Shown piece by piece: positions 274 to 64,000 of a DNA stretch of 64,000 nt (position 1 is its first letter; every line of letters starts with the position of its first letter). Source of the DNA: an uncultured Candidatus Micrarchaeota archaeon (GTDB lineage: Archaea > Micrarchaeota > Micrarchaeia > Micrarchaeales > Micrarchaeaceae); contig CAVUGN010000004.1 of NCBI GenBank assembly GCA_963741095.1, forward strand, positions 53,190 to 117,189, written 5' to 3'. The notes beneath the pieces were generated by a model. It saw only the letters and a list, made by a program, of their open reading frames with translations. It did not search any database and had not been told where the DNA came from. Position numbers and translations under genes: made by a program.

Positions 274-819
274 ATGGCGTACTACACTGGCGCGGGCGAC
301 TGCGGCTGCACCGGCACTCTGGGAAAAGCCAGGCTGGGAAAGAACGACAGGCTCATAGTCGCGATAGGAGACATCGACGAACTGAACAGCGCCATAGGCA
401 TCGCCATAACCTCGCTCACTGAAAAGCACGTGTCGAACATGCTCATGCACGTGCAGAACAATCTTTTCATTGTAGGGGCGGAGCTTGCCGCTTCGCTCAA
501 TGGCACGGATTCTGCGCTCAAGGAACGCATAAACAAGCAGAAGGTAAAGGGGCTCGAGAAAGCGATAGACGAACTCGGCGCCACCTTCCCGGAACCGAAG
601 AAGTTCGTGCTTCCAGGCGGATCTGACGGCGCGGCTCATCTTCATCTCGCAAGAGCGGTGTGTCGAAGGGCGGAGCGCTCGGTGATCGGCGCAAAATCCG
701 AGGCGAAGATAAACGACGAGCTTTTGAAATACCTCAACAGATTGTCGTCGTTCCTTTTCGTTGCTGCTTTGCACGCGAACAGCAAAGAAGGTGTAGAAGA
801 AAGACATCCAGTGTACTGA
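274..819 (+). CDS. pduO: ATP:cob(I)alamin adenosyltransferase, PduO/MMAB type
   Basis: YTGxGDxGxT N-terminus, GDIDELNSAIG, FVLPGG, LHLARAVCRRAER and YLNRLSS motifs. Confidence 0.92.
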   Translation: MAYYTGAGDCGCTGTLGKARLGKNDRLIVAIGDIDELNSAIGIAITSLTEKHVSNMLMHVQNNLFIVGAELAASLNGTDSALKERINKQKVKGLEKAIDELGATFPEPKKFVLPGGSDGAAHLHLARAVCRRAERSVIGAKSEAKINDELLKYLNRLSSFLFVAALHANSKEGVEERHPVY

Positions 820-55757: not shown

Positions 55758-55874
55758 TCCATTCACTAGGCTATGATACGAATGCAACATCTAAAAAGCG
55801 TTTGTTATGTTTCGATTTTGTGCACTGGCCGCCCCGATTCCGCGGCGGCAGTGCGCATAAAACCGAACCACGGC

Positions 55875-56015
55875 TTACTTTCCTCCGATCTTGAACATCT
55901 TTGTGCCGCAAACCGGGCAGGTTCCCGAATTCGCAGTCTTGCCATTCTTCATGGTGACCTCTTTCGGGTCCTTCATCTCTCTCTTTTGTTTGCATTTCAT
56001 GCAGTAGGCTTCCAT
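55875..56015 (-). CDS. Small zinc-ribbon protein (DUF5679-like)
   Basis: MEAYCMKCK...KNG....GTCPVCGTKMFKI with two CxxC pairs. Confidence 0.8.
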   Translation of the reverse strand: MEAYCMKCKQKREMKDPKEVTMKNGKTANSGTCPVCGTKMFKIGGK

Positions 56016-56132
56016 ATAATCATCAATCATATCTCTCCACAGAAACCTATTAATAGGTACCACAAACGCACCGGATTAACGGCACAATCAAAAGGCTTAT
56101 ATAAACTCAAGATTAGATTCATCGGGGTTGGA

Positions 56133-56261
56133 ATGGAAGCACGAAAAGCAGCACCCGCGCAAATCGAAGTCCCAAGGGAAATAAAGCCGAACATAGATCC
56201 GGTTGCAAATCCTTTGAAGGAGACAAGCTACATGATGAGGCGCTTCATGAAACGGTGCTAG
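56133..56261 (+). CDS. Putative 42-aa small protein
   Basis: TTATATAAA promoter (~56097) and GGGGT RBS upstream of ATG 56133; MEARKAAPAQIEVPREIKP... Confidence 0.4.
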   Translation: MEARKAAPAQIEVPREIKPNIDPVANPLKETSYMMRRFMKRC

Positions 56262-56293
56262 GCAAACATCTCGCTATCGAGTTCCAACAAAAC

Positions 56294-56689
56294 TCATTTC
56301 AAGACGTAGACCTTGCTGCCCCTGTTCACCTTGATGTCGGTCTCTATGCCGACGTCGTCGCCATCTCCGGCCTCTTCGACGTTGACCCTGTCTATCTGCA
56401 TGCTCGAGACCTTCAGCTTCACTATCTCATTGCCTTCTTCTATCTCTATCGTGTCGCCGACCTTCACGCTTCCGGTGAGCGTTATCGCCATGACGTTCAG
56501 CTTGTCGTAGAAATGCTCCACGGCGCCCACAAAGACCTTCCTCTGCACCTGGCCGCTCCCGAGCCCGCTGACTTCGCTCCCCTGCTCGTCGTTCAGCACG
56601 GCGATCTCCTCGCTCCTCTGCGGCCGGTTGGAGGCAGGGCCCCTCTCCCGCTCCTCGAAGTCCCCCATCATGTCGTCTATGTTGTCCAT
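56294..56689 (-). CDS. Translation-factor-like beta-barrel protein with acidic N-terminus
   Basis: VGAVEHFYDKLNV, VKVGDTI, VSSMQID, GDDVGI (EF-Tu domain II-like). Confidence 0.75.
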   Translation of the reverse strand: MDNIDDMMGDFEERERGPASNRPQRSEEIAVLNDEQGSEVSGLGSGQVQRKVFVGAVEHFYDKLNVMAITLTGSVKVGDTIEIEEGNEIVKLKVSSMQIDRVNVEEAGDGDDVGIETDIKVNRGSKVYVLK

Positions 56690-56736
56690 GGAAACGCCTA
56701 GAGCTATTACGAAAGAACTTTATAATAAAGTGCGGT

Positions 56737-57877: not shown

Positions 57878-58963
57878 TCAACACCTAAGCAGTTCAGTGC
57901 ACTCGCTGACCTTCAAGAGAGCGTCGTCGCTTATGTCCATGACTGCGAGACTCCTGATGTCCTTCTCTATCTTTGCATGATACGGGAGAATCCCGCGGAA
58001 GTTCCAGCCCAGCGTGGTGACCGATTCCAGCACGCTGGTCTTCATGAAATTGCCCTCAAGGAACAGGACATCATAATCGTTCATGTTCATCCTCACGTGA
58101 TAGTCCAGGAGCTCGGCGGTGATCGCCAGGAAGAGCGCTCTCGCCCTGCCTCCTCTGTAATCCTCGCGCACCACGAAGTCGGTGAGCTCCGCAAGCTTTA
58201 TGTGTCCACTCTCAAACGGGACCCGCGAAGTCTCTATTATGCCCATGGCTATGGCCTCCTGCCCTCCGCGTTCCGTTGCCACCGAAAGCAAAGTGTTGCT
58301 GTCTGTCAGCAGGCGCATGGCGCTCATCTCATCATAGCCGAATGTCTTTGTCATGAGCCTGATCAGAGAGTTCGTGTGTATCCCGGCATAGCTCTCGAGA
58401 TACAGCACTCGCTCCCCGTCAAAGGCCCTTATTTCGTATCCTTCCCTCCTTACCTCACCCAATCTGTCACCCAGCCTGCGTTGCATTTCAGCATGATCTT
58501 CTGCCTGTACCATGACCTCCCCCATCCTTCTCGAGTAGGTGCGGCTTTCCTCCGCGCTTGGACTTCTGGTGCTGCTGTTAAATCCTATGTAAGCGATCGA
58601 GTCGTTGTGGTTCCTTCCGTGCATCGGCAGCGTGGCCTCAACGTTCGCGCCGATCCCCGATATTCCCGCGCGCAGCGAATTTATGTACTTGTTGTTCACG
58701 ACGAGCCTGATGCTGAGCCTGCTTGCCTCGCCGAATCCGCACCGGACGCACTCGTCGTTCTCGATCATCTGCTTTCCGTACTGCGTGATCCTGATGGCGC
58801 TCCGCACCTTTTCCGCAGAGTCAACCCTGATGTCTATGAAGCCCTTCAGCCTCTCGGATCCGCCGGGCCCGATGTAGCCCACCGGGCCGATGCTGTCCGA
58901 GGCTTCCCTCGGCGCGTAGAATGCCGCAGCGGTCCTGTCTATGTTTTGCATATGTTGTACCAT
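57878..58963 (-). CDS. Hypothetical protein with GNAT-like C-terminal domain
   Basis: AELTDFVVREDYRGG resembles the GNAT acetyl-CoA-binding motif A; overlaps/abuts the downstream M20 gene. Confidence 0.55.
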   Translation of the reverse strand: MVQHMQNIDRTAAAFYAPREASDSIGPVGYIGPGGSERLKGFIDIRVDSAEKVRSAIRITQYGKQMIENDECVRCGFGEASRLSIRLVVNNKYINSLRAGISGIGANVEATLPMHGRNHNDSIAYIGFNSSTRSPSAEESRTYSRRMGEVMVQAEDHAEMQRRLGDRLGEVRREGYEIRAFDGERVLYLESYAGIHTNSLIRLMTKTFGYDEMSAMRLLTDSNTLLSVATERGGQEAIAMGIIETSRVPFESGHIKLAELTDFVVREDYRGGRARALFLAITAELLDYHVRMNMNDYDVLFLEGNFMKTSVLESVTTLGWNFRGILPYHAKIEKDIRSLAVMDISDDALLKVSECTELLRC

Positions 58964-59085
58964 GATCTCACAAAGTGCCCCATCGCTAGGGGTGAAACAC
59001 ATAGTATTATATGAACTCCCAAGTATATTAACTTAGTGTTATCTAAATAACAAAATAATAATGATTTGTTACAAATGGGGATAAA

Positions 59086-59746: not shown

Positions 59747-61495
59747 TCAAACGATGCCGGAGATGCACTTCGCCACCGGCAGCGCGCTGCCGGCAATGAT
59801 CACGAGTATGTAGGGCGCGACGATCGCTATGAAGCTGCCCACGACGCCCCCAATGACCATGCCCATGCCGTAGCCCTGGAACTGTCCCTTGTGGGTGCCC
59901 GGCATTATGGGGCCCAGGGTGTAAACGATGGCGCCCAGTATGACCAGAAGTATGCTCAGCAGGAACACTATGCTGTGCACCTCGCTGTAGATGTTGCAGA
60001 GCACGTTGACAAGCCAGTCTGGGGAATTGTAGGGCGTGGCCGCGACGGCGAGCGTGATCGTGTTGCTCGTGCCATGGTAGCTGGAGGTTACCGTGTAGGT
60101 CCCGTTCGTCAGGGCGCCGGCGCTTCCAAGGCTTACGCCTGTGCTGAAAGCGCCAGTATTGGATATCGGGGCATCGGCAGTGCTCACCGAACCGTGCGGG
60201 CCCGCTACGGAGATCACCACGTCATTCTTTCCCGATTTCGGCGCGGGCGACACGACTCCCGATACCTGTATGACATCGTTTCCCGAGTTCGAGTTGGTTA
60301 CGGAGTTTGCGGTCACGTTGCGGAACTGCGTCGTCGGCACGTTAAGGATGAATGTTGTCTTGCCGCCGCTGCCATAATAATTCGAATCAACGGTGTACGT
60401 ACCGTTCGAGAGATTGTTCTCCCTTCCCAGCGTTATGCTGATGTTGAAAGCCCCGGAAGTCAGCACGGGGGTGTCTCTCGTGGCCACGGGCGCGCCATGC
60501 GGTCCGAATATGGAGAGTATGACTATCGAGTTGGCTGATTTCGGCGGAGGCGAAACGCTGCCTGACACGTGCACTATGCTGTTGCCCGAGCTTGAATTGG
60601 TCACCGCATTCGCCGTGAAGTTGTGGAACTGCGCGGCAGCGGGCACGACGGCATTGATGCTCACGTGATGCCACAGAAATGCGACAAGCAGGTACAGCAC
60701 TGCGCATATCAGCAGCGCGATAAGGAAGGATCTCAGTTTGTGGTCCTCCTCCATGACCTTTCGTTCCTCGGTTGGGTTGGTGCTCAGCGCCCTGGTGTCC
60801 ATGACCGTTTCTCCGGTGTTCGGATCAAAATTTGGGGTGGCCGAAGCCTCGTTCGGCTCCTCCTTCCCATTATCAAAAGCATTCGCTGGTGCTGGCTCGG
60901 GCTGATTCTGCTCGTCGAATTTCCATCCGGGCTCCAACGTCTCCTGATTCTCTTTGGGCGGTTCGGATTTCTGCTCGGAAGAAGGTTCCTCGCCCTTTTC
61001 TGGAACATCCTCTGGTGCCGGCATCCCAGCGCCCTCGGCCGGTGTCCCGCTTTCCGCGTGCGGAGGTTCCGCATGTTCCTCGTATTGGCCATAAGTGGGC
61101 GACGGCTCCTCGCTCTTCGGGGTTTCCGGCGCGCTTGCGACCGCTTCGCCCATCGTCAGCGGCTCTTCGGCCGCCTTCACGGGTTCGCGATACGGCTCTG
61201 CGCCCTGTTCCGTCTTCGGCTTTGCGGCGCGCTTCTTTTTTATCTTAATCCCAGGCGCCTGCACCTGCGAACTCTCCGTTGGCTTCTGCTCTGGCGAAGC
61301 TGCCACATCGACTCCTGGCTGTTCAGGTGAAGATTGCTGCCCTCCTGCATTCTGACCGCCTGGCGAGCCTGCCGATGTTGCCAGATCGTCCGGTCCTGAA
61401 GCCGTCCTTGGGGTGCGCTGCCGTTTCGCCCTGCCTTCAGGCTCCTGCGCGGGTCCTACGCCGACCTGCCCCTCAGCCAAATCATCATCCGCCAA
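59747..61495 (-). CDS. Membrane protein: acidic disordered N-region, TM, two Ig-like repeats, C-terminal pilin-like hydrophobic hairpin
   Basis: ~250 aa rich in E/P/Q/A, TM (FLIALLICAVLYLLVAFLW), 101-aa tandem duplication, then LCNIY...2 TM segments; TTG start. Confidence 0.75.
   Translation of the reverse strand: MADDDLAEGQVGVGPAQEPEGRAKRQRTPRTASGPDDLATSAGSPGGQNAGGQQSSPEQPGVDVAASPEQKPTESSQVQAPGIKIKKKRAAKPKTEQGAEPYREPVKAAEEPLTMGEAVASAPETPKSEEPSPTYGQYEEHAEPPHAESGTPAEGAGMPAPEDVPEKGEEPSSEQKSEPPKENQETLEPGWKFDEQNQPEPAPANAFDNGKEEPNEASATPNFDPNTGETVMDTRALSTNPTEERKVMEEDHKLRSFLIALLICAVLYLLVAFLWHHVSINAVVPAAAQFHNFTANAVTNSSSGNSIVHVSGSVSPPPKSANSIVILSIFGPHGAPVATRDTPVLTSGAFNISITLGRENNLSNGTYTVDSNYYGSGGKTTFILNVPTTQFRNVTANSVTNSNSGNDVIQVSGVVSPAPKSGKNDVVISVAGPHGSVSTADAPISNTGAFSTGVSLGSAGALTNGTYTVTSSYHGTSNTITLAVAATPYNSPDWLVNVLCNIYSEVHSIVFLLSILLVILGAIVYTLGPIMPGTHKGQFQGYGMGMVIGGVVGSFIAIVAPYILVIIAGSALPVAKCISGIV
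60040..60631 (-). repeat. Intragenic tandem duplication, 303-nt period
   Basis: QFHNFTANAVTNSSSGN...GPHG...NGTYTV (from 60631) versus QFRNVTANSVTNSNSGN...GPHG...NGTYTV (from 60328). Confidence 0.85.
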
Positions 61496-61729: not shown

Positions 61730-61741
61730 AAAGCCACGAGC

Positions 61742-64000
61742 ATGGTAAAAATGGGCAAAACTATCTCTTCGGTCCCGCAGGACAATTCAAAAAGCCAAGG
61801 CGCAGACGCCAGTAGGATCAAGGAAATACAGATGCGCATGGACACTGCTGGCTGCCTCGGCGAGCTCAGAGTCCAAAAGGATCTGCCCGTCGACTCCAAG
61901 GCGCGCAAGGACCACGAGAAACTGGTGGACAAAGTCTCCTGGTTCGTGAGCGACTTCGCGGGCAGCATAATAAAGAACGCTGCGCATGTAACCGAGACAA
62001 GAATCAGCGAGATAAAAGACATGCTTGCAGGACTCGATCCCTTTATCGCAGGCGAGATCCTTCTCTCAATTGAGAAGACCTCCGATGTAGCCGCGCTGAC
62101 AAACAAGGCTTTCATCGATTCTCTGGGCCGCTTTGATGTGGACATAGCCTGTGCGCTGCTGTACGAGATACGGTTAACGGGCAACACAGCCGCACTCACG
62201 CAAGAAGGCCTTTTCACCGACTACGCGGTCAATTTTCTCAACAGACTGGGCGCCGAGGCCGCAAGCGAATGGATGAACTCGATAGGCATGACGGGCATTC
62301 CGGGAAGTTTCGGCGTGCTCACTAGCGAAAAGGCCATGGGCGGCAACGTGATTGACGCGATAGGCGGCAGTGCGAAGATAGCCAGCGAGTTGTCCTACGC
62401 AATAGGGGTAACCGGAAAGGTTGACGAACTGACCGATTCCGGTTTCCTGGACTCTTTGAAGGGGCTGAAACGGGACGCGGCAGCTTCACTGTTGTCCAGA
62501 ATTTGGTACAAGGGAAGCATTGACGGGCTCACAAACATCAAGACAATTGGAAAGATAGGCCGGGGTGAACTCGACGTGTGGGACGACGCGGCAACAATCA
62601 ATAACAATCGCGGCACGGCGCTGCCTCCTGTCATAATCGCGAAGCTAGGTGCCGACCACCACGACCGAGGCGCGAAGCTTAAAGCGCAGCTAATGGCCGA
62701 CTCTGGCTTGAGGGTCGTGTACATCTCCGCGAAGAGCTCCGGCGAGGTTATGGACGCTGCGAGGAGGGTGGGCGCCGGCGCCATAGGATTCAGCATGATG
62801 GACGATTCGCAAAAGAGCATCGTCGCAGAAACCGTGGAGCGGATCAAATCGCAGAGCATCTCCGGAATAAAAATATTCGGCGGAGGCGCAATCACGCAGG
62901 ACACGGTCAAGGATCTGCAGCGGCTTGGAGTGAACATGTTCGGGCAGGGCATAACCAACGATGCCGCGCTGCTCACGTTCCTCGGCACTACCATGCCTAA
63001 CGCGCAAAAATCCGCGAACCCGAGCGTAACCCAAATTCCATGGGTCGGGATTGCTGCGAGCAACACATACGCCAACGCTGGCTACACCTTTGCTGCATTG
63101 GGCGTATCATACGCCATGCCGCTCGGCGTTCAGATTGTTGCAAGCACGAATTCGCGCCAGGCACTGGATCTTGCAACACCCATCCACTACGATTCGGACG
63201 AGGATTCAAAAAGAAAGAAGAAACTAGAGATTTCCAATATGCACACTAATCCACAAAAAGCAGACAACATCAAGGAAGAATATCTCAACATCGCATCCAA
63301 CAACCCTCCGCAATCATCGTCCAAAATCGATGCGGCCGGATTGCAGTACGCTGCGACGGCTGTCAAAACGCCAATAAAAACGTTAGAATATAATGTCACG
63401 TCGACCTTGTTGAAAGGCGTTCAGTACACAAACATTGCTACATCAACAGTTTCGGTCCTCAGCCAACCCTCCCTCAATATGCGCGCACACGTCGAACCAG
63501 GTTTCACCTTCGGAGTCAGCATCCATCATCATGACGGCATCGAGAAAAAGCGGGGATTTGAGAACACCAGCGCCGTCCCTGCAGAAATCAAAACAAGCAT
63601 GAACAAAGAAGAAAAGCCCCTTGAAATTCCCGCATTCTACACAAAGCCGCAGCAAATGTCCAAACCGAGCATGACCATATTGCAATCTGCCTCTGAAAAA
63701 GCGCCAATTCGGATGGCGGTCATCGCATCGGTCGGCTCGAGGGGCACGCAGTACGATCAGATTGCTGCATATCCTTCAGTGGAAACCAGCAAAGACGCCT
63801 CAAACACATGGCGGACTGCCGAACTAAGTTTTGTCGCTGCAACCTATTCGGATTTGGGAGAATACGCAAAGAAAAAGCGGACATTGCCAAACTCCACTAT
63901 GGATTTTGATTCTAAATCGAACGACCCCCAAAAAGATTTGCCACAAGCTCCAGTGTTCCACGATCGTCTCCAGGTCGCGCCTGAATCTGATGTGACGAAA
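61742..64000 (+). CDS. Large cobalamin-binding-domain protein with helical repeats (partial, >753 aa)
   Basis: Not in ORF track (no stop before the window end). Manual translation is open from ATG 61742 and contains VIIAKLGADHHDRGAK...GFSMM...IFGGGAI, a methylmalonyl-CoA mutase C-terminal-like B12 domain at 62624-62983. Confidence 0.85.
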   Translation, partial: MVKMGKTISSVPQDNSKSQGADASRIKEIQMRMDTAGCLGELRVQKDLPVDSKARKDHEKLVDKVSWFVSDFAGSIIKNAAHVTETRISEIKDMLAGLDPFIAGEILLSIEKTSDVAALTNKAFIDSLGRFDVDIACALLYEIRLTGNTAALTQEGLFTDYAVNFLNRLGAEAASEWMNSIGMTGIPGSFGVLTSEKAMGGNVIDAIGGSAKIASELSYAIGVTGKVDELTDSGFLDSLKGLKRDAAASLLSRIWYKGSIDGLTNIKTIGKIGRGELDVWDDAATINNNRGTALPPVIIAKLGADHHDRGAKLKAQLMADSGLRVVYISAKSSGEVMDAARRVGAGAIGFSMMDDSQKSIVAETVERIKSQSISGIKIFGGGAITQDTVKDLQRLGVNMFGQGITNDAALLTFLGTTMPNAQKSANPSVTQIPWVGIAASNTYANAGYTFAALGVSYAMPLGVQIVASTNSRQALDLATPIHYDSDEDSKRKKKLEISNMHTNPQKADNIKEEYLNIASNNPPQSSSKIDAAGLQYAATAVKTPIKTLEYNVTSTLLKGVQYTNIATSTVSVLSQPSLNMRAHVEPGFTFGVSIHHHDGIEKKRGFENTSAVPAEIKTSMNKEEKPLEIPAFYTKPQQMSKPSMTILQSASEKAPIRMAVIASVGSRGTQYDQIAAYPSVETSKDASNTWRTAELSFVAATYSDLGEYAKKKRTLPNSTMDFDSKSNDPQKDLPQAPVFHDRLQVAPESDVTK

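Follow-up and report, generated by a model that had tools for sequence, protein, structure and literature searches.

Intracellular trafficking of vitamin B12 (cobalamin) is understood for few systems: CblC/CblD, the adenosyltransferase ATR, and MeaB with the mutases. MeaB (MMAA) and ATR act on the mutases, and for another cofactor the J-protein/Hsp70 pair HscB/HscA acts on IscU to drive Fe-S cluster hand-over. The riboswitch-controlled proteins by which bacteria acquire B12 (BtuB/BtuF, BtuG, and BtuM/CbrT) work at the surface, in the periplasm, or in the membrane. Here, we describe a gene at the 3′ end of a 64,000-nucleotide stretch of DNA (the window) from an uncultured Candidatus Micrarchaeota archaeon (GenBank assembly GCA_963741095.1, contig CAVUGN010000004.1, positions 53,190 to 117,189 of the forward strand). 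Its open reading frame (ORF) follows a cobalamin riboswitch and encodes a helical-repeat solenoid, a B12-binding-type Rossmann domain, and a low-complexity linker, and most likely continues into a C-terminal J module. The best-supported reading of this family is a cytoplasmic, non-enzymatic cobalamin handler whose partners are a dedicated J protein and DnaK. We tentatively take it for a B12 capture or hand-over protein that is induced by B12 scarcity.

The ORF is open at its 3′ end because the window ends where contig C4 of the assembly ends. A reading frame running off the window, as proposed in the initial annotation made from the letters alone, is genuine. A predicted protein of 1001 aa (P0001) is 100% identical to the window ORF across all 753 aa. 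The source genome (G000; 1.08 Mb in 11 contigs, ~52% GC, 94% complete) carries only one gene of this B12-solenoid family. As that annotation had also proposed, the protein contains a His-on B12-type Rossmann domain: PF02310 matches above its cutoff, and the DxHxxG, S-M-M, and GGG motifs are canonically spaced (Table 1). His307 (62660–62662) is predicted to coordinate cobalt as its lower axial ligand. All 27 family members compared (27/27) have this histidine and the GG pair at 381–382, and the position of Ser351 is mostly S and sometimes G. PF02310 is also matched by the seven relatives found first (7/7). When aa 1–418 were modeled with AlphaFold2 (AF2) from 8 sequences (predicted local distance difference test, pLDDT, 83.8; predicted template modeling score, pTM, 0.78), aa 21–289 were helical and the strands and helices of the Rossmann fold covered aa 297–413. 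From these motifs and this fold, the head of the protein is predicted to bind cobalamin.

The closest described relatives of the B12 domain, judged from sequence and from the model, are the small, B12-binding subunits of acyl-CoA mutases (Aeropyrum pernix methylmalonyl-CoA mutase 2yxb and HcmB 4r3u, together with the B12 domains of MMUT and IcmF). They have the same Rossmann fold, the H-D-R-G-A-K motif, and the His/Ser/GG spacing in common with it, and sequence matches reach E values of 1.9e-10 (2yxb_A) and 3.5e-9. In a VIA structural search, the Rossmann part matched 4r3u_D at Z 17.4 (root mean square deviation, rmsd, 2.3 over 124 aa) and 4xc6_A (IcmF) at Z 16.5; the structural match to 2yxb has a TMt of 0.78. 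The protein could thus be the orphan small subunit of an adenosylcobalamin (AdoCbl) isomerase, whose partner is of an unfamiliar kind or was not assembled. Its best family matches are indeed mutase C-terminal domains (NCBIfam TIGR00640, acid_CoA_mut_C, 49.6 bits; NF006944, 47.7 bits), 2yxb and 4r3u are its closest solved relatives, and one relative is named “methylmalonyl-CoA mutase C-terminal domain/subunit” by one source. However, TIGR00640 stays under its cutoff of 57.45. The mutase barrel (PF01642) has no match in the 94%-complete source genome; of the 151 genomes of the order that were searched, 4 have it, and all 4 lack a full family gene. The best match to MeaB (PF03308) in the source genome reaches 19.5 bits, below the cutoff of 23.1. 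Across 26 family loci we found no conserved neighbor, no gene recurring in more than 3 of them. Finally, the B12 domain of this family lies between a 290-aa solenoid and a 500-aa linker followed by the J module, which is unlike any mutase subunit. With neither barrel nor MeaB, we rejected the mutase-subunit reading, and we consider an orphan isomerase subunit improbable.

The first reading of the window had seen no mutase, methyltransferase, radical-SAM, MeaB, or MerR domain, and none was found in the full-length relatives either. A mutase or MeaB partner supplied by the C-terminus or the next gene, which would have refuted that reading, was not found. In the 753-aa ORF, the only other Pfam match at E ≤ 1 is a weak one to QRPTase_C, with no MerR and no B12-binding_2. 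CarH, AerR, and photocobilin also are non-enzymatic B12 Rossmann domains placed after a helical domain. A corrinoid methyl-carrier like MtaC or a light receptor like CarH would account for some of the structural matches (1y80_A, Z 15.4; 2i2x_B, Z 14.5; CarH chains). Yet the Z scores of CarH, AerR, and photocobilin (11.8–13.6) overlap with those of unrelated receiver domains in the same list, and Pfam detected no four-helix cap or DNA-binding domain in the ORF, the helical part being the five-repeat solenoid. The profile of the methyl-carrier MtgC (NF047995) gives 15.3 bits against a cutoff of 310, and the structural matches are limited to the Rossmann part; no search for methyltransferase partners was made. 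A methyl-carrier or a light receptor is thus very improbable.

The initial annotation had read five repeats of ~33–40 aa in the N-terminal part, and these are real. At i-E ≤ 0.01, a hidden Markov model (HMM) built from them found 2–5 copies in each of 20 other N-domains of the family and none in any of 20 shuffled sequences. Modeled alone with 22 sequences, the N-domain is all helical (AF2 pLDDT 91.3, pTM 0.88). In VIA it comes closest to a designed repeat protein (8v2d_J; Z 10.0, rmsd 3.9, 198 aa), and below this top row the wide search gave designed repeat proteins and generic ARM/HEAT-like rows at Z <7. Foldseek against the PDB returned nothing at E ≤ 0.001, and the ESM Atlas gave no usable match for the N-domain or for the module on contig C10 described below. 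We read the modeled N-domain as a generic alpha-solenoid without known natural structural relative. The same repeat is present in 3–8 copies in large proteins of 1051, 1242, and 782 aa (L064:5190–8345 (−) in G021, L066:4675–8403 (−) in G260, and L065, respectively) that have no B12 domain and no Pfam match. The helical repeat is a building block of wider use in Micrarchaeota.

The family is rare. A sequence search yielded only 7 relatives in 5.8 billion clusters, and all 7 of the confirmed related loci come from Candidatus Micrarchaeota. The N-domain profile, searched against 1.84 billion representatives, matched 100 proteins at E ≤ 0.001, with 42 at E ≤ 1e-30. In a sample of the phylum, 40 of 401 genomes match, in three families of the phylum (10/93 in f1, 27/83 in f2, and 2/9 in f7); 23 of the 40 do so at E ≤ 1e-30, each with both the solenoid and the B12 domain by local profile or motif check, and the weaker matches that were fetched are repeat-only proteins. 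One genome flagged as unpublished (G034) counts as a no-match genome in both the phylum and the order samples, and a second (G202) may be among the no-match genomes that are not listed individually. A metagenome scan with P0106 returned only a 1211-nt fragment. In the collections searched, the family is confined to Candidatus Micrarchaeota.

Downstream of the B12 domain, the long low-complexity tail noted from the window was confirmed. In the 1001-aa form, aa 416–925 are S/A/I/P/T/K-rich and poorly conserved, without any window resembling a transmembrane (TM) segment, and aa 754–1001 add no Pfam domain. Three relatives (P0003, P0004, and P0018) carry at their C-terminus a DnaJ domain (PF00226) and, after it, a conserved helical module of ~150 aa, and proteins of G047, G393, and G223 carry the same J module as a fusion, as shown by sequence match to P0003. 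In P0003, which belongs to the sister genus, PF00226 scores 59.2 bits against a cutoff of 27.8 and the HPD motif is present. In the source genome, bases 2–469 of contig C10 encode the last 156 aa of this J module, 66% identical to P0003. This frame, which takes in the last part of the J domain, is free of internal stops and closes with a stop codon. The HPD part would fall in the assembly gap, with ~1 kb missing between the end of C4 and the start of C10. The J module most likely belongs to the family gene of the source genome, across this gap. At its very end, P0001 resembles what the homologous DNA of L002, from the sister genus, encodes when read in the +1 frame, down to the same stop, so P0001 looks like a gene call cut by a frame shift before the J domain, be the shift real or an assembly error. 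Retrieval of the C-terminus thus gave a J module in relatives and on C10, and no mutase or MeaB, but only indirectly. The family gene was observed at a contig end in several assemblies (position 64000 of the window, where C4 ends, L002, L006, and L007). The low-complexity linker seems to break assemblies, and truncation or a frame shift may affect gene calls like P0001.

The J module also exists on its own. Stand-alone J proteins of 268–272 aa, made of the J domain and the same module, start exactly at the fusion junction. Among the 401 genomes, with the J module counted at E ≤ 1e-8 and the full family gene at E ≤ 1e-30, the module is present in 24 and the family gene in 23, and 17 genomes have both. 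About 1.4 shared genomes would be expected by chance, a comparison that is not a formal test since related genomes are not independent. Six genomes have the family gene only and seven the module only, five of these seven being weak matches. DnaK was detected in 5 of 5 genomes tested, including the source genome (PF00012 at C9:22395–24125, E 1.2e-213). A specialized J protein is in this way tied to a cofactor holder by fusion, fission, and co-occurrence. The idea is like that of HscB/HscA with IscU and of MeaB, where a nucleotide-driven chaperone is coupled to a cofactor holder; in this family such a coupling is suggested by the fusions, fissions, and co-occurrence. The systems have different cofactors and folds, and their sequences are unrelated. 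The literature gave no description of the family, which had been taken as undescribed from the start, and no paper on a fusion of B12-binding and J domains.

The cobalamin riboswitch that the initial annotation had counted in is real and lies directly before the ORF, with a match to RF00174 above the gathering score (Table 1). The 3′ end of the aptamer lies 4 nt upstream of the first ATG (61742). When 14 copies from Micrarchaeota are aligned, compensatory (double) changes are seen at 10 of the 36 predicted pairs. These aptamers are short (122–140 nt), and beyond the end of the Rfam model the element CCACGAGCATGG is identical in 14 of 14 copies (alignment A6). We take this invariant 3′ element for a probable expression platform specific to the lineage. 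The distance from the aptamer end to the start codon is 6–18 nt in most copies. Such a start codon, close behind the invariant element, suggests control of translation initiation. The first ATG itself sits inside the invariant element, and in L002, from the sister genome, a 1-nt difference puts this ATG out of frame and the ORF starts at the ATG matching 61751. This comparison of sequences points to ATG 61751, not 61742, as the probable translation start. Cobalamin riboswitches as a rule shut genes off at abundant B12, and the present one would likewise be off with B12.

Within the order, 13 of 151 genomes carry 14 cobalamin riboswitches. Downstream of these are the family gene (6), DUF6580 (5), an Ig + Peripla_BP_2 protein (1), and unknown genes (2). 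When the separately scanned loci are included, 8 of the 23 full-family genomes have a riboswitch in front of the family gene, and these 8 include all the J-fused forms. DUF6580, a membrane protein of ~185 aa, is present in 7 of the 151 genomes, with 5 copies directly behind a riboswitch; the source genome has such a copy (Table 1). For DUF6580 we found no PDB sequence relative, no NCBIfam match, and no paper, and we propose it as a candidate archaeal B12 transporter. From their sequences, the other genes behind the riboswitch look like uptake genes. Expression at low B12, as supposed in the initial annotation, fits with the conserved riboswitch link and with uptake-like genes behind the same riboswitch, if the switch works in the usual direction. 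BtuB/BtuF, BtuG, and BtuM/CbrT are likewise found behind a cobalamin riboswitch, alongside uptake-type genes, but they have other folds, and the family protein differs from them by the absence of a signal peptide or TM segment, by its intracellular His-on Rossmann domain, and by its archaeal host. In the portions of PMC8241225 and PMC8281238 that bear on archaeal riboswitches, no cobalamin riboswitch is listed and fluoride is the sole type experimentally shown, the fluoride riboswitch of Thermococcus kodakarensis being the only natural archaeal one determined experimentally (PMC8241225). Our literature search, which did not cover supplementary tables, found no paper on cobalamin riboswitches in Micrarchaeota or other DPANN archaea. 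The genes listed above document a coherent cobalamin riboswitch regulon in this group.

CbiB and CobS, which act late in cobalamin synthesis, were not found in the source genome (94% complete). The sole ribonucleotide reductase detected is the AdoCbl-dependent NrdJ (TIGR02504, 555.5 bits against an equivalog cutoff of 399.95), and three B12-binding radical-SAM proteins are encoded as well. The organism cannot make B12, and the cell therefore needs to import it. A PduO-type adenosyltransferase, which the first reading had counted with the locus, is not part of it. It lies ~61 kb upstream of the family gene and adjoins it in one relative only, as a divergent neighbor in G310 (L008:6856–7401 (−)). 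PduO is present in 127 of the 151 genomes of the order, a tally that includes G202 and G034, both flagged as unpublished. A complex prediction of the PduO trimer with the head (aa 40–418) scored 0.00, with controls not run, and is no evidence either way. In a cell that cannot synthesize B12, a protein with a high-confidence B12 site and no catalytic domain might serve as a cobalamin store or buffer, a reserve kept and protected. This was one of the roles first suggested for the gene, and it fits poorly with a gene switched off at plentiful B12: if the riboswitch follows the rule, the store would be made at the wrong time. It would also be a costly one, with one site per protein of ~1000–1200 aa. 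We hold storage to be quite unlikely.

The non-enzymatic capture or hand-over protein that we favor would work as follows. The head would be the five-repeat alpha-solenoid packed against a mutase-type, base-off/His-on B12 Rossmann domain, and a flexible, fast-evolving linker of ~500 aa would separate it from the C-terminal J module. Scarcity of free cobalamin would, through the riboswitch, allow translation of the protein. Its head would then bind incoming cobalamin and act as a high-affinity sink behind the uptake proteins, whose genes follow a riboswitch of this kind as well. The J module would recruit DnaK, whose ATP cycle may open the head, so that the cofactor is released or passed on, either to PduO or to a client enzyme. 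We draw the steps of trapping and release by analogy with the systems cited above, and the DnaK-driven release step, taken alone, is doubtful.

Several observations weigh against this reading. The fusion in the source genome is deduced across an assembly gap, and the sole full-length call, P0001, ends before the J domain, apparently in a shifted frame. At “near” and “longer” lengths, the 5.8-billion set contains no protein identical to the C10 module, and aa 754–1001 of P0001 have no tblastn match in the source genome, so that we infer the full-length form there. The J module is missing from 6 of the 23 full-family genomes (3 of the 6 are <90% complete), and in its fused form from most family members. 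Family and J genes that occur separately show no linkage, with ~600 kb between them in G243, a genome assembled as one contig, and none of 9 stand-alone J loci has a riboswitch in front. The proposed co-occurrence of homologues with the riboswitch stood for the 8 linked genomes, but 15 of the 23 full-family genomes lack a riboswitch at the gene. The motif Asp is not conserved either: two residues ahead of the His, 9 of the 27 members have D and the others E, G, A, S, R, H, or N. Finally, other C-termini are found in the family, namely a TM-like tail anchor (12 of 57 rows, or ~7–8 distinct proteins), a basic amphipathic helix, and a C[YFH]CSCH motif at the end of 4 proteins (L058, L061, P0041, and P0045), so that DnaK cannot be the partner of the family in general. 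The family has a constant B12 head on a long variable linker, and its far end is modular.

These modular C-terminal outputs on one constant head, and the J-module link, would also suit a B12 sensor or regulator, which is the main rival. The protein would then report B12 status rather than carry the cofactor, with occupancy of the head changing the action of the J or other C-terminal module, for example by sending DnaK to certain clients or to sites at the membrane. The B12 domains of CarH and AerR are sensors, and they are among the structural matches (7te2_A, Z 12.7; CarH chains). On the other hand, a sensor made only when its ligand is scarce would be an odd design, Pfam found no DNA-binding or signaling domain, and the B12 domain is nearer to the mutase small subunits than to CarH/AerR. 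A sensor is in our view unlikely, and the store, the mutase subunit, the methyl-carrier, and the photoreceptor are less likely still.

On the capture or hand-over reading, a B12 auxotroph with a 1-Mb genome devotes a gene of an estimated ~3.5 kb to a riboswitch-wired, J-protein-tied, non-enzymatic B12-type protein. If the J link is functional, this would be a new mechanism for cofactor capture or delivery and, if true, the first case of Hsp70 in vitamin B12 trafficking. Vitamin dependence would also be a concrete currency between host and symbiont for the biology of DPANN archaea. A wider cobalamin economy of Micrarchaeota, in which a bacterial-type riboswitch regulon, a tethered solenoid-capped catcher, and an Hsp70-powered release are combined and perhaps adapted to drawing the cofactor from a host, is speculative and rather unlikely as a whole.

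Table 1. Coordinates of the family gene, its riboswitch, and related features. Positions without a prefix are those of the window; aa numbers follow the 753-aa ORF.
Feature	Position	Strand	Basis or remark
Cobalamin riboswitch aptamer RF00174	61603..61737	+	Rfam 36 bits; gathering score 31.5
Invariant riboswitch 3′ extension, CCACGAGCATGGTA	61734..61747	+	Past the end of the Rfam model
Truncated family ORF, 753 aa	61742..64000	+	Open 3′ end; lacks the C-terminal quarter of the protein
Probable true start codon (M4 of the listed ORF)	61751..61753	+	Comparison with L002
Cys38, best-conserved residue of the N-terminal helix	61853..61855	+	Cys in 19/22 N-domains (alignment A5)
Five helical repeats, 33–40 aa each (aa 98–274)	62033..62563	+	Repeat HMM; core of the alpha-solenoid (~aa 20–290)
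B12-binding Rossmann domain (Pfam, aa 297–403)	62630..62950	+	PF02310, E 8.7e-12, 45.4 bits; cutoff 32.1
D-x-H-x-x-G motif (D-H-H-D-R-G, aa 305–310)	62654..62671	+	Motif; canonical spacing to S351-M-M and G380-G-G
Low-complexity linker, aa 416 onward	62987..64000	+	Composition; almost no conserved columns (alignment A1)
PduO-type adenosyltransferase	283–774		165 bits
Second riboswitch of the source genome	G000:C2:245732–245869 = L009:1501–1638	−	Precedes the DUF6580 gene
DUF6580 gene, 188-aa multi-pass membrane protein	L009:820–1386	−	Behind the second riboswitch
Secreted Ig + Peripla_BP_2 (BtuF-type) protein	L069:2–1489 (G104)	−	Behind a riboswitch
405-aa protein without family	L072:286–1500 (G190)	−	Behind a riboswitch
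177-aa protein without family, then a 233-aa unknown	L076/L011:1647–2180	+	Behind a riboswitch

In locus L003 (G295), the ORF directly 3′ of the family gene (L003:10701–11093 (+), 130 aa) carries a Cas12f1-like TNB domain and is a fragment of TnpB/IS200-605 type. Downstream of the module on C10 are two unknown genes, a LeuA-like synthase, and a HAD hydrolase. In the window, the divergent upstream neighbor of the family gene (59747–61495 (−)) encodes 582 aa, with an acidic, Pro-rich low-complexity N-terminal half. The product also has a TM segment, a pair of similar domains rich in Ser/Thr/Asn, and a membrane region at the C-terminus. Neither Pfam nor NCBIfam matches this protein, which has the look of a surface protein. 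Further upstream, a 374-aa ORF (57878–59002 (−)) without Pfam match overlaps with a 345-aa ORF of the opposite strand, which leaves the gene call uncertain, and two ORFs of 162 and 148 aa at 55773–56701 (+) also lack a Pfam match. Neighboring genes are archaeal in type, for example a pyruvoyl arginine decarboxylase and DUF7523.

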